Shown here in pieces: positions 445 to 55,246 of a DNA stretch of 64,000 nucleotides (positions are counted from its first letter, which is position 1; each line of letters begins with the position of its first letter). Origin of the DNA: an uncultured Bacillota bacterium (GTDB lineage: Bacteria; Sysuimicrobiota; Sysuimicrobiia; Sysuimicrobiales; Segetimicrobiaceae); NCBI GenBank assembly GCA_963804645.1, contig CAWDRG010000001.1, forward strand, positions 96,001 through 160,000, given 5' to 3'. A program made the translations under genes and the position numbers. A model generated the notes under the pieces. That model was not told the origin of the DNA. It saw only the letters and a program-made list of their open reading frames with translations, and did no database searches.

Positions 445-1738
445 GGTAGTGTCAAGTGTTTTGTGTAAATTCCCGTGAGAGAGAGCGCCTCGCCTGCCGG
501 ACATTCAGAGCCTGAACGATCGCATAGATAATCCGATCACAGCTGGCCACGTTCGTGAAGCACGTCATGGGGCGCGTGCGCCGGCGGACTTCGCGAAACA
601 CCCGTTCAATCGCGTTCGTCGTGCGCACCCGGCGCCAGTCCGCCTCGTTGACGGCATAGAAGCTGAGCAGAGCGTCCTCCTCGCGCGTCAGACAGGCGAC
701 CGCCGCGGGGGCGGTGGCCTGCCAGGCCTGGACCCACTGGCGCAGGAGGCGGCGCGCGGCGTGGGCGGTCGGCGCCTGATAGATTCGGCGCGCCATGCGC
801 AGACACGCGTCCCGGTCCTTGACCCGCAGCCGATTGGCCACGTTGCGGAGGACATGGACCCAGCACGCTTGGCGCGGGACGTCCGAATAGACCAAATCGA
901 GGGCGGCATGGAGGCCCCGCTGGCCGTCCGTCGTAATCAGCTGCAACTGCTTCCCGACTAACCCGCGGCAGGCCAGCGTCGTGAGAAAGGCTTCCCAGGT
1001 GGTTTGGGTCTCGTAGCGGGCCAGCCGGAAGTCGATCAGGTCCCGCTGCCCGGTCGGCCGAATGCCGTAGGCCACGAGAATCAAGCGGCGCTTGCTCCCC
1101 GCGAGCCCTTTCACCCGGAGGCTGACGGCGTCGAGGAACAGATACTGATAGTGATCGTCCAGCGTCCGGTGGTGGAAGGCCGCCGCGGCTTGATCCAAGG
1201 CCCGGGTGATCGTCGAGACGGTCGTGGGGCTCACGACATCGTCGAGGAGCTTGGCGAGGACGGGCCCGACCTGGCGGGTGGAGAGGCCGCCGAGGAAGAC
1301 CGCGCGGACGAGCGCGTTGACGTCACTGGTGCGGCGCTGATAGCGGCCGAGCACCGAGGGCTGGAACCCACTCTGGCGGGCCCGGGGAATATGGAGATCG
1401 GGGATGGTGCCCCACGTCGTCACCAAGCGGCGGCGGTAGACGCCATTCCGATACCCCTGCCGGTCCGGATTCCGAGTGTACCGGCCGGCATTCAGATGGT
1501 TGATCAACTCGTCATGCATCCGGTTCTCCAGCAAGAGCTTGACCGTGCGGAGCGTCTCTCGGGAGACATCCCCCCACAGGGTCGCTTCATCCTTGACCTC
1601 CTTCCAGAGATCGGCTACGGTGAGATCGGTCAGTGGTCGCACACTGGCCATGGGCGTATCCCTCCTTATGGTTGGTCAGGTCGGGGTACGCCCTCTCTTT
1701 TCGGGCTCCTGCTTTTACACACAATACCGTACACTACC
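445..1738 (-). mobile_element. IS256-family insertion sequence, copy 1 (1294 bp, intact)
   Basis: Imperfect terminal IRs: GGTAGTGTCAAGTGTTTTGTGTAAA from 445, and the reverse complement of GGTAGTGTACGGTATTGTGTGTAAA ending 1738. Flanks CTGCTGTC (437-444) and ATGCTGTC (1739-1746) form an 8-bp target duplication with one mismatch. Single Mutator-type transposase. Confidence 0.93.
452..1651 (-). CDS. IS256-family (Mutator) DDE transposase, 399 aa
   Basis: Motifs GYRNG, YLFLDA, ITTDGQRGL, QACWVH and RTTNAIERVFREVRRR; stop codon lies inside the right IR. Confidence 0.95.
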   Translation of the reverse strand: MASVRPLTDLTVADLWKEVKDEATLWGDVSRETLRTVKLLLENRMHDELINHLNAGRYTRNPDRQGYRNGVYRRRLVTTWGTIPDLHIPRARQSGFQPSVLGRYQRRTSDVNALVRAVFLGGLSTRQVGPVLAKLLDDVVSPTTVSTITRALDQAAAAFHHRTLDDHYQYLFLDAVSLRVKGLAGSKRRLILVAYGIRPTGQRDLIDFRLARYETQTTWEAFLTTLACRGLVGKQLQLITTDGQRGLHAALDLVYSDVPRQACWVHVLRNVANRLRVKDRDACLRMARRIYQAPTAHAARRLLRQWVQAWQATAPAAVACLTREEDALLSFYAVNEADWRRVRTTNAIERVFREVRRRTRPMTCFTNVASCDRIIYAIVQALNVRQARRSLSREFTQNT

Positions 1739-52116: not shown

Positions 52117-52260
52117 AGTCGCCGACATTATAGCACAGGCCTCACGCGGACCATCGCGATGGGAAGCACACGGTAGTGTACGGTGTTGTGTGTAAAAGCA
52201 GGGACCCCAAGAGAGAGGGCGTACCCCCGACCTGACCAACCGAAAGGAGGGATACGCCCG

Positions 52261-53619
52261 ATGGCCAGTGTAGCCGCACTGACCGATCTCACCGTAGCCG
52301 ATTTGTGGAGGGAGGTCAAGGATGAAGCGACCTTGTGGGGCGACGTGTCTCGGGAGACGCTCCGCACGGTCAAGCTCTTGTTGGAGAACCGGATGCACGA
52401 TGAGTTGATCAACCATCTGAATGCTGGCCGGTATACTCGGAATCCGGACCGGCAGGGGTATCGGAATGGCGTCTACCGCCGCCGCTTGGTGACGACGTGG
52501 GGCACCATTCCCGATCTCCATATCCCCCGGGCCCGCCAGAGCGGGTTCCAGCCCTCGGTGCTCGGCCGCTACCAGCGCCGCACCAGCGACGTCAACGCGC
52601 TCGTCCGCGCCGTCTTCCTCGGCGGCCTCTCGACCCGCCAGGTCGGGCCCGTCCTCGCCAAGCTGCTCGACGACGTGGTGAGTCCCACGACCGTCTCGAC
52701 GATCACCCGGGCCTTAGATCAGGCCGCGGCGGCCTTCCACCACCGGACGCTGGGCGATGACTATCAATATCTGTTCCTCGACGCCGTCAGTCTCCGGGTG
52801 AAAGGGCTCGCGGGGAGCAAGCGCCGCTTGATTCTCGTGGCCTACGGCATTCGGCCGACCGGGCAGCGGGACCTGATCGATTTCCGGCTGGCCCGCTACG
52901 AGACCCAAGCCACCTGGGAAGCCTTTCTCACGACGCTGGCCTGCCGCGGGTTGGTGGGGAAACAGTTGCAGCTGATTACGACGGACGGCCAGCGGGGCCT
53001 CCATGCCGCCCTCGATTTGGTCTATTCGGACGTCCCGCGCCAAGCGTGCTGGGTCCATGTCCTCCGCAACGTGGCGAATCGGCTGCGGGTCAAGGACCGG
53101 GAGGCGTGTCTGCGGATGGCGCGCCGGATCTATCAGGCGCCGACCGTCCACGCCGCGAGCCGCCTCCTGCGGCAGTGGGTCCAGGCCTGGCAGGCCACGG
53201 CCCCGGCGGCGGTCGCCTGTCTGACGCGCGAGGAAGACGCCCTGCTCAGCTTCTATGCCGTCGCCGAGGCGGACTGGCGACGGGTGCGCACGACGAACGC
53301 GATCGAACGGGTGTTTCGCGAAGTCCGCCGGCGCACGCGCCCCATGACGTGCTTCACGAACGTGGCCAGCTGTGATCGGATTATCTATGCGATCGTGTAT
53401 GCTCTGAACGTCCGGCAGGCGAGGCGCTCTCTCTCAAGGGAATCTACACATAACTCTAGTATGAGAGTCAACGGTCGGGTGAAAAGGATCTGGACCGTCC
53501 CCCCGGTACCGGTGAGTGGGGCCCGTGATGCCCACTACCCTCCCGGAGGAGGCGATCCAGATGCAGATGACGATCGGAGTGCGCCGGCGTATCGCGAAAC
53601 AGACCCAACGCCGAGCTGA
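52261..53619 (+). CDS. IS256-family transposase with 53-aa read-through extension
   Basis: About 14 substitutions in 399 aa versus copy 1 (counted by eye); the native TGA was displaced by the IS110 insertion. Confidence 0.92.
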   Translation: MASVAALTDLTVADLWREVKDEATLWGDVSRETLRTVKLLLENRMHDELINHLNAGRYTRNPDRQGYRNGVYRRRLVTTWGTIPDLHIPRARQSGFQPSVLGRYQRRTSDVNALVRAVFLGGLSTRQVGPVLAKLLDDVVSPTTVSTITRALDQAAAAFHHRTLGDDYQYLFLDAVSLRVKGLAGSKRRLILVAYGIRPTGQRDLIDFRLARYETQATWEAFLTTLACRGLVGKQLQLITTDGQRGLHAALDLVYSDVPRQACWVHVLRNVANRLRVKDREACLRMARRIYQAPTVHAASRLLRQWVQAWQATAPAAVACLTREEDALLSFYAVAEADWRRVRTTNAIERVFREVRRRTRPMTCFTNVASCDRIIYAIVYALNVRQARRSLSRESTHNSSMRVNGRVKRIWTVPPVPVSGARDAHYPPGGGDPDADDDRSAPAYRETDPTPS

Positions 53620-54856
53620 ACTGACACCGGAGACGTTGATTGTGGCCTTGGATCTGGGCAAACACCAGCACGCCGTATGGGTGACTGATTCGACACGCAT
53701 TCCCCTGGATACCTGGGTGATGCCGACCAGTCCCGAAGGGTTTGCCACTCTCTTCGATCGAACCGCGCGCCTGCAAGAGCGATTCGGGCGCCCCCAGTTG
53801 CTGTTCGCCATGGAACCGACCAGTCACTTTTGGAAGCTGGCCGCACAGCAGATCACAGACCGCGGCGCGCGCTATCGCCTGGTGCAACCGTTGTCCGTGC
53901 GGCGAGCGCGAGAAGAACAGCGGTACACCTGGGCGAAAGGCGACCGGATCGACGCAGAACTGATCGCCACCCTGATTGCAAACGGGACATGGCTGGAGAA
54001 GCAGCTGGAAACGGGACCGTGGGGCACTTGGGAACAACTGGCGCGCACGCGGCTTCACTTGGTGCAGCAGCGGGCCGATATCTTGCGAGAACTGCTGGCA
54101 CTGGTCGAGCTGTGGTTTCCAAATTATCCCTACTTGCCCCACGGAGTGACGCAACCGGGCTCGGTCGCGGTGTTGCGCAGTTGCCCCACGCCGGCGGAGA
54201 TTCAACGCCTGAGCGCCGAGGCGTTTCTGACCCGCGTGCGTGCCCACTATACCGGAGCGCGGTTCCTCCCACGCCGTATCTTGCGGGTCTATCACGCGGC
54301 CAAGCACACCTGGGGCCTGCGAACTGATCGGTTGACCGCCGGCTTGCGCATTCGCATGGCGGTCCGCCGCTACGCATTACTGACCGAGCAGATTGCGACA
54401 ACGGAACGTCACCTCGCCCGATTCTATCGCGCCAGCGGCGCGCGGGCCCTGTTGGAGACCATTCCAGGCTTGGGCGCTGCGGTGGCCAGTACGCTCGTTG
54501 CGCTGATGGGCCCGGTCAATCGCTACGATCGTAGTCGTTGCGTCGTGCGGCTCGCCGGGGCGGAACCGACCGAAAATGCGTCTGGCACATTTCAAGGGCA
54601 CACTCCGGCGAGTCATCGCGGGCGCGGGGCGCTGCGATTGGTGGCCTACCAGGCAGTCCTCGGCCTCATTCGCTGTAATCCCGAGTTTCGAGCCAGGTAC
54701 GATTGGCTAACCACACGACCGAAGCGGCCGCTCCATCAGATCGCGGCCCGCGTCGCGCTGGCCAATAAACTATTGCGTACCATTTATACGATACTTGTCA
54801 CACACTGTCCGTACGATGCTTCCGTGGCGCGCGGGGAGGGGCGGAACTCGCAGTGA
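53561..54856 (+). CDS. IS110-family DEDD recombinase/transposase
   Basis: VALDLGK, AMEPTSHFW and KGDRIDA (DEDD); TIPGLG, AGAEPTENASG (catalytic Ser region) and ALANKLLR; GGAGGAGG RBS before ATG at 53561. Confidence 0.95.
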   Translation: MQMTIGVRRRIAKQTQRRAELTPETLIVALDLGKHQHAVWVTDSTRIPLDTWVMPTSPEGFATLFDRTARLQERFGRPQLLFAMEPTSHFWKLAAQQITDRGARYRLVQPLSVRRAREEQRYTWAKGDRIDAELIATLIANGTWLEKQLETGPWGTWEQLARTRLHLVQQRADILRELLALVELWFPNYPYLPHGVTQPGSVAVLRSCPTPAEIQRLSAEAFLTRVRAHYTGARFLPRRILRVYHAAKHTWGLRTDRLTAGLRIRMAVRRYALLTEQIATTERHLARFYRASGARALLETIPGLGAAVASTLVALMGPVNRYDRSRCVVRLAGAEPTENASGTFQGHTPASHRGRGALRLVAYQAVLGLIRCNPEFRARYDWLTTRPKRPLHQIAARVALANKLLRTIYTILVTHCPYDASVARGEGRNSQ

Positions 54857-55115
54857 TCAGTACCGTCCTGCTAGGGCAGCCCGGCACCGCATCTCTTGGG
54901 CACAACCCGATGTCAAGCATGGGCACGCCCTCCCGCGTACCCCGGATGGCGGCTGGTGGGAACACCCCGTATCGCCACTAGAGTGGGATGGGAGGACGAG
55001 ACTCAAGTGGGACGCGTACAGAAACTGTTTCTCAATACTAGGTTATAGCTCACTAAGCAGGCGGCGAGAAAAAACGGCCCCCTGCGCACGGGGAGACATG
55101 TGTCACCGAGGGGAC
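54857..55115 (+). ncRNA. Putative bridge RNA / seekRNA
   Basis: Target-loop-like unit at 54879-54924: stem GCCCG/TGGGC enclosing ...CATCTCT, hairpin TGGG-CACAA-CCCG and TGTCAAG (reverse complement of target CTTGACA). Donor-complementary ACTAG(AGT) at 54977 and ATACTAG at 55035. Boundaries unknown. Confidence 0.7.
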
Positions 55116-55246
55116 TTGACAAGACTCTCATAGGCTGCTTGACACTACCGAAGCACACCGGCTTAATGCCGTTTTTCCGAGTTCCAGCGCGCGACGTGAA
55201 GAGCAACTGATGGTCGAGCAATTTCCCGGACCGGTATCCTGCATCC

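Follow-up and report, generated by a model that had tools for sequence, protein, structure and literature searches.

An IS110-family element inserted in the terminal inverted repeat of an IS256-family insertion sequence, with a candidate guide RNA region behind its recombinase gene

The locus described here lies in a stretch of 64,000 nucleotides (hereafter the window; positions 96,001 to 160,000 of contig CAWDRG010000001.1, assembly GCA_963804645.1) from an uncultured Bacillota bacterium, which GTDB places in the Segetimicrobiaceae (Sysuimicrobiota; Sysuimicrobiia; Sysuimicrobiales). It holds an insertion sequence (IS) of the IS256 family, whose right terminal inverted repeat is interrupted by a second IS of the IS110 family. 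The insert occupies 53458-55139 (1682 bp) and splits the IS256-family element 10 bp from its right tip, leaving 1286 bp on the left (52172-53457) and the tip TGACACTACC on the right (55140-55149), while the 9-bp duplication GAAGCACAC flanks the whole nested unit. When the two IS256 parts were joined by script, a 1296-bp element was obtained in which the right inverted repeat and the TGA stop codon were regained, and which was 94.4 % identical to the intact copy 1 of the window (445-1738, 1294 bp). The restored transposase open reading frame (ORF) had 399 codons, with a TGA that spans the join and, like that of copy 1, ends 7 nt short of the tip. The insertion extends the ORF by 53 codons to 53619, and annotation of the nested locus would yield a falsely extended transposase of 452 instead of 399 codons. 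The dinucleotide CT stands at both junctions, against a single CT in the empty site, a pattern that recombination at a core of two bases leaves behind, as it does in IS621 (PMC11208160). With repeat, stop codon and duplication all restored precisely, chance is not an issue here. The coordinates, the duplication, the CT at both junctions and the restored repeat and stop codon had all been put forward in an earlier sequence-only reading of the window, and each of them was reproduced.

The host IS encodes a Transposase_mut protein of the IS256 family (PF00872, 1.6e-83; NCBIfam NF033543, 299 bits), whose gene begins at ATG 52261 behind the left inverted repeat (approximately 52172-52198). Members of this family typically have imperfect terminal repeats of about 25-30 bp and generate 8-9-bp duplications. 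The host shows a Mutator-type DDE transposase, a 9-bp duplication, and a restored right end that aligns with the left end over approximately 27 nt, the insertion lying between repeat positions 10 and 11. Copies of this IS were found across the genome, seven of them full-length (94-100 % identity), one split by another insert and one a relative at 72 %; the other copies are likewise flanked by 8-9-bp duplications. Six uninterrupted right ends read ...CT/TGACACTACC (the slash marks the position of the junction) and represent empty sites, and the right end at C2:163725 is identical to the restored site over its full length. The split copy (C2:163724-167121) is interrupted near position 590 by a 2124-bp insert that encodes a DDE_Tnp_1_4 / DDE_Tnp_1 transposase (1.9e-79); at its right end, this copy offers a free site with the same sequence as the occupied one in the window.

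The insert itself carries the gene of a DEDD recombinase with 103 nt of non-coding sequence upstream and 283 nt downstream. The start at ATG 53561, preceded by a ribosome-binding site (GGAGGAGG, 53545-53552), was adopted because ten close homologues (70-88 % identical) are 431-433 residues long. The recombinase has a DEDD RuvC-like domain at its N-terminus (PF01548) and a PF02371 domain with the conserved Ser-Gly at its C-terminus, the pair that marks the IS110 family in the wide sense, and passes the NCBI IS110 model NF033542 with 171 bits against a cut-off of 140, in agreement with the family first suggested for it. The DEDD residues and the Ser-Gly (D31, E85, D128, D131, S341 and G342) are invariant in all 11 recombinase sequences, and the motif G-A-E-P-T-E-N-A-S-G corresponds to the IS110-type G--P----SG. 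The element ends in perfect 10-bp subterminal inverted repeats, outside of which terminal extensions remain that measure 2 bp at the left end (4 when CT is included) and 5 bp at the right end (7 when it is included). Its left boundary is shared by related contigs, one of which (L016) begins exactly at the first base of the insert. As is usual for IS110 elements, no duplication extends beyond the short core, and the window and the related contig L019 agree in how the element is oriented towards the repeat tip. Judged from its domains and ends, the insert is an intact IS110-family element in the wide sense. In the integrated state, no promoter-like site was predicted before the recombinase gene; across the ends joined in silico, a sigma-70-type promoter was predicted (TTGACA, 17-nt spacer, TAGTAT). 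The features of the locus are compiled in Table 1.

Table 1. Coordinates of the nested locus within the window (L016 to L020 are related metagenome contigs)
Feature	Position	Strand	Basis or remark
9-bp target duplication made by the IS256-family element, left copy	52163..52171	.	sequence
IS256-family element: left inverted repeat, transposase gene, inner part of right inverted repeat	52172..53457	+	
CT core, left junction	53456..53457	+	sequence
IS110-family element, 1682 bp counted with one CT	53458..55139	+	left boundary common to L016-L020
Left subterminal inverted repeat TATGAGAGTC	53460..53469	+	perfect, 10 bp
DEDD recombinase gene, 431 aa	53561..54856	+	PF01548 5.7e-19, PF02371 8.7e-17
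3' non-coding region, candidate bridge/seek RNA gene	54857..55139	+	conserved structured core 54861-55018
Candidate left target guide, same sense as left target + CT	54888..54896	+	6/9 Watson-Crick + 1 wobble versus IS256 repeat
Small hairpin (14 nt) between the candidate guides	54897..54910	+	stem kept in L019, loop differs
Candidate guide for the right target (complement of CT + TGACA in the IS256 tip)	54911..54917	+	7 contiguous nt
TTGACA, -35 box of a predicted promoter that is complete only after circularisation	55116..55121	+	computed joint
Right subterminal inverted repeat GACTCTCATA	55123..55132	+	perfect, 10 bp
CT core, right junction	55138..55139	+	sequence
Displaced 10-bp tip of the IS256 right inverted repeat, TGACACTACC	55140..55149	+	
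Right copy of the 9-bp target duplication	55150..55158	.	sequence

The junctions were compared with other public sequence data. An independent metagenome contig (L015) contains the IS256 part, the insert, the tip and the right flank and crosses both junctions at 99 % identity. Furthermore, Logan contigs from two runs of two studies (X1 and X2) cover 53428-54961 and 53428-53976 with zero differences, reaching 30 nt into the IS256 part, one short of the bridging rule. The best-covering public runs are peat and soil metagenomes. In the contigs of four runs, in which rare forms are dropped, neither a precise-excision joint of 53458-55139 nor a circle junction was found. The left flank of L015 (L015:1-110) differs from that of the window and is an interior piece of a six-copy IS110-family element of the genome (6 matches, 100 %), which suggests that the assembly was joined through IS256 copies or that a related strain is arranged differently.

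Relatives of the recombinase were also sought. The 94 genomes covered for the host phylum all belong to a single order. No match was found in 60 relatives (E <= 1e-20), in the other 93 genomes of the phylum (E <= 1e-40), in three genomes reached through loci, or in 401 genomes of the phylum of locus L027 (E <= 1e-50). A scan of genome contigs yielded only recombinase matches of 28-30 %, two scans of viral contigs yielded none, and the best plasmid-borne match was 29 % identical. The ten relatives at 70-88 % were all located on short metagenome contigs, and nothing further was found above 39 %. One predicted protein (P0045, 302 aa, from a cluster of 23) begins with ~74 residues that correspond to the start of the recombinase of a close relative and continues in frame into a Phage_integrase domain (1.3e-25); here, an element copy was apparently disrupted by, or recombined with, a tyrosine-recombinase gene.

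Four independent insertion contexts were available, namely the window (with L015), L018/L019, L017 and L020, the relatives being 79-88 % identical to the window element. L018 and L019 represent one locus in two metagenomes and hold a relative at 81-82 %, which follows ...ACACCCCTCT. Here, a 15-nt arm ends exactly at the junction, and its perfect inverted copy, preceded by the 10-nt tip GGTAATGTCA, lies 1312 nt away. Between the arms lies a Transposase_mut gene (5.1e-33) that is 31 % identical to that of the window and apparently contains an in-frame stop. As read from these arms and this gene, a different IS256-family element has been hit at the equivalent repeat position, and the orientation to the tip is also unchanged. 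The flank of L017 resembles the L018/L019 repeat at 12 of 16 positions, as counted in a hand alignment and not by a tool. By these comparisons, two of the four contexts are verified IS256 repeats, one is suggestive and one speaks against such a target. The site-specific placement in an IS256 terminal repeat that the sequence-only reading had proposed is upheld by the precise restoration and by the relative at the homologous position of a different IS256-family element. Its prediction that the flanks of all copies would show ...CT/TGACA within IS256 repeats meets a single copy in this genome, and the flank of the relative L020 does not resemble an IS256 end. The left flanks L017:715-824 and L020:1685-1790 share an AT-rich AGAACTTA approximately 50 nt from the junction, in an alignment of 70 % with gaps. 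They may contain a common short repeat or a miniature inverted-repeat transposable element; no convincing terminal repeat was found in them.

The 3' non-coding region of the insert is a candidate gene for a guide RNA. RNAalifold predicted 53 pairs for the window and L019, three of them with compensatory changes, from these two sequences only. Taken alone, the fold of the region was not distinctive (z = -1.07). A comparison with Rfam returned no bridge-RNA family and two matches, both at chance level (E 3.2 and 8.8), and a 112-residue ORF overlapping the region had no match in Pfam. The candidate guide segments sit in an internal loop of a stem-loop that is common to the window and L019. Around the left segment, a contiguous match to CTCTTG is found at 54893-54898. 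The right segment is identical in L018/L019 and would form an 8-nt pairing there with the tip, whose sequence is inferred from the other repeat.

The criterion for a loop was a same-sense segment matching over 6 nt or more, followed at a distance of 5-40 nt by a complementary one matching over 7 nt or more, with CT inside both. Of 20000 dinucleotide shuffles of the region, 22 satisfied it, against none of 430 stretches of 283 nt from elsewhere in the window. The method was also applied to a positive control, another and unrelated IS110-family element of this genome with a known empty site; there, matches of 7 nt and 8 nt that cover its core flank a hairpin in the non-coding end, in reverse order. 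The exact guide assignment for the candidate segments appears reasonably likely. For a donor-binding loop, the same-sense CTGCTAG at 54868-74, the combination of GGCGGCT at 54948-54 with CACTAG at 54976-81 (UACUAG in L019), and ATACTAG at 55035-41, in a stretch not conserved in L019, were considered, and none of them could be preferred. The distal part of the region (55020-55113) is variable: one X1 contig joins 55019 to 55114 and skips 94 nt, one X2 contig diverges after 55041, and L019 aligns poorly over this stretch. On the minus strand, a terminator-like hairpin with a T run is located at 55095-55078.

We consider it quite probable that the element entered the IS256 repeat by RNA-guided recombination at CT, with a guide loop fitted to the repeat tip. 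Several observations weigh against this reading. Since the insert is present in a single copy in its genome and no relative was found in the other 93 genomes of the phylum, the test of the target rests on metagenome contigs, and no relative's contig reaches the right junction, the sequence ...CT/TGACA being verified only in the window and L015. L017 shows no IS256 transposase within the 821 bp available, and the flank of L020 is not recognisably an IS256 end. The left guide pairs at only 6 of 9 positions (plus one wobble) in both the window and L019, and no guide-target covariation is seen, since where this guide differs between the two, the changes do not follow those of the targets. No candidate for the donor-binding loop could be assigned in the 3' region, and the shuffle test was designed after the matches had been seen. 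Finally, an unoccupied chromosomal site at approximately C9:350248 (...TCTCT/TGACAT...) fits the candidate guides about equally.

The imperfect left guide, the flank of L020 and the chromosomal site would also agree with the recognition of a short motif (about CT, TGACA and a few bases on the left) wherever it is present, in which case the IS256 repeat would merely be a multicopy carrier of the motif and no specialisation of the lineage would exist. TTGACA is moreover a common -35 hexamer, and CTTGACA occurs 168 times in the genome. However, two of the four contexts are the same repeat position in IS256-family elements whose transposases share just 31 % identity, the flank of L017 is similar to such a repeat, and elements that differ by ~20 % in their DNA have an unchanged complementary guide. 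We regard a simple preference for the motif as improbable. Far less probable still is that the 2978-bp unit is one composite transposon, an IS256 derivative that moves as a whole with an IS110-type passenger. The 9-bp duplication does flank the whole unit, and L015 has the same unit with a different left flank. However, repeat and stop codon are regained exactly when the insert is taken out; the insert possesses ends, repeats and CT cores of its own and has other flanks in L017, L019 and L020; and only one copy of the whole unit was found in the genome. The deviation of L015 is confined to the left, where the 110-nt piece of the six-copy element fits an assembly join through IS256 copies. A wrong joining of repeats in this metagenome-derived genome might be suspected in a repeat-rich assembly of 22 contigs, with Logan contigs that enter the IS256 part only briefly. 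However, both junctions are crossed by an independent contig, the contigs of two runs from two studies match without difference over the stretches given above, and the exact left boundary is common to the relatives; wrong joining has next to no probability, and the junctions are not an assembly artefact.

Under the preferred reading of RNA-guided insertion at the repeat tip, the IS256-family element would have inserted first, making the 9-bp duplication, and the IS110-family element would later have entered its right terminal inverted repeat by conservative site-specific recombination at CT. By analogy with IS621 and the seekRNA elements, the DEDD recombinase would excise the element as a circle joined at CT, and the promoter formed at the joint (TTGACA-17-TAGTAT) would transcribe the recombinase gene together with the 3' non-coding region. 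The latter may then be expressed as an RNA that folds into the guide, one internal loop of which would pair, around CT, to each of the two strands of the IS256 repeat: the 5' guide to the bottom strand over the left target and CT, and the 3' guide to the top strand over CT and TGACA. Strand exchange at CT would produce no duplication and would leave CT on both sides. Because the sequence recognised would be the conserved tip of an IS256-family repeat, the element would land in a multicopy, dispensable and horizontally travelling site. As the outer 10 bp of the right repeat are cut off from its inner part by the insert, and the transposase gains 53 residues, the host IS would reasonably be expected to stay immobile until the insert is excised.

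A bolder view would be that the whole clade, in which the guide RNA follows the gene and the proteins have ~431 residues and share less than 40 % identity with any sequence beyond it, has specialised as a hyperparasite on IS256-family transposons, with the right guide fixed on the tip (CT + TGACA) and the left guide drifting with the host IS, and that, by splitting the repeat and extending the transposase, it acts as a natural, reversible off-switch of IS256 copies and travels with them between genomes. We put this forward as a tentative idea and consider it rather unlikely.

Other cases of nesting were observed in the same genome, in which 23 DEDD (PF01548) matches were counted. Five of the six copies of the six-copy IS110-family element are themselves interrupted, always at one fixed site, by another IS110-family element (1432 bp, C6:107740-109171). 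Outside the window, the six-copy element is located at C6:106376-109300, C19:112825-116032, C21:520-4897, C17:852727-855713 and C16:28-1519; the C16 copy is uninterrupted, and the nested element in C21 is a 77 % variant. In its 5' non-coding end, this nested element has a hairpin flanked by target matches of 7 nt and 8 nt. In this genome, it seems common for IS110-type elements to be nested in other IS.

If guided insertion is accepted, IS256-family terminal repeats would join the natural targets of RNA-guided IS110-type recombinases, which include repetitive extragenic palindromic (REP) elements, attC sites, Tn21-type repeats and IS3 transposase genes. As a natural worked example, the locus allows target, core and ends to be read together with a candidate guide loop, and it adds a poorly sampled recombinase lineage, with an IS1111-like layout and IS110-like protein features, that should be of some use for surveys of bridge-recombinase diversity. 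What is new here appears to be the target, a transposon parasitised by a transposon being already known. No long-standing question is opened by it, since the targeting of transposons by IS110-family transposons is already documented.

With respect to the target, the closest parallel is given by IS4321 and IS5075, which, as Partridge and Hall are said to have described in 2003, sit at a fixed position and in a fixed orientation inside Tn21-type terminal repeats. The window element shares with them a DEDD recombinase, subterminal repeats, a 3' non-coding region and a location inside the terminal repeat of another transposon. In contrast, the host here is an IS256-family IS and theirs a Tn3-family transposon, the recombinase has 431 residues instead of 330-350 and is only remotely related in sequence, and the terminal extensions and the candidate guide order depart from the IS1111 pattern.

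For the IS110 and IS1111 groups and for IS621, we refer to what is stated in two papers (PMC11187229 and PMC11208160). Like the IS1111 seekRNA elements ISEc11, ISKpn4, ISPst6 and ISPa11, the insert has a downstream non-coding region, subterminal repeats and, as candidates, two short segments that match the target within a folded RNA (PMC11187229). IS1111 subterminal repeats usually measure 11-13 bp (7-17 bp in PMC11208160), and those of the insert are perfect over 10 bp, while its downstream region is the longer one (283 versus 103 nt). In the same group, extensions of 7 (or 6) bp on the left and 3 bp on the right, a transposase of 330-350 residues with the motif GL-P----S/TG, and an RNA with the top-strand-matching segment 5' of the bottom-strand-matching one are described (PMC11187229). 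In the insert, however, the long extension is on the opposite side, the protein has 431 residues and an IS110-type motif, and the candidate segments stand in the opposite order, which depends on the guide assignment. Going by ends and protein, it is not a canonical IS1111 member, and of the label IS110/IS1111-type used in the sequence-only reading, the IS110 part is retained, while membership in the IS1111 group proper fails on extensions, protein length, motif and guide order.

ISEc21, an IS110-family element, targets a conserved stretch inside IS3-family transposase genes (PMC11187229). Similar to the window element, its target is specified by RNA and lies within another IS, and its bottom-strand-matching segment precedes the top-strand one, as in the candidate loop; it differs in that the target is coding sequence, the non-coding region lies upstream of the gene and the transposase has 358 residues (PMC11187229). 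For transposon targets in general, ISEc21 and IS4321/IS5075 are precedents; for IS256 ends as an IS110-family target, no report was found (ISfinder, TnPedia, subscription journals and supplementary target tables lay outside the scope of this search). IS621 has a CT core and a promoter made by circularisation, and the 5' side of its target loop pairs with the bottom strand (8-9 nt) and the 3' side with the top strand (4-7 nt), the core included (PMC11208160). The window element resembles it in the CT core, in the predicted circularisation promoter, a type of junction promoter described for the family (PMC11187229, PMC11208160), and in the strand order of the candidate loop. In contrast, the RNA of IS621 is encoded in the left end and directed to REP elements, and only the C-terminal domain of the recombinase aligns with IS621 (E 3.7e-07 to 8wt6) and with ISCro4 (2.7e-07 to 9t56). 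Since a downstream non-coding region is noted for some IS110-type elements in PMC11187229, the insert can be regarded as a member of a poorly described branch of this family rather than as a new kind of element.

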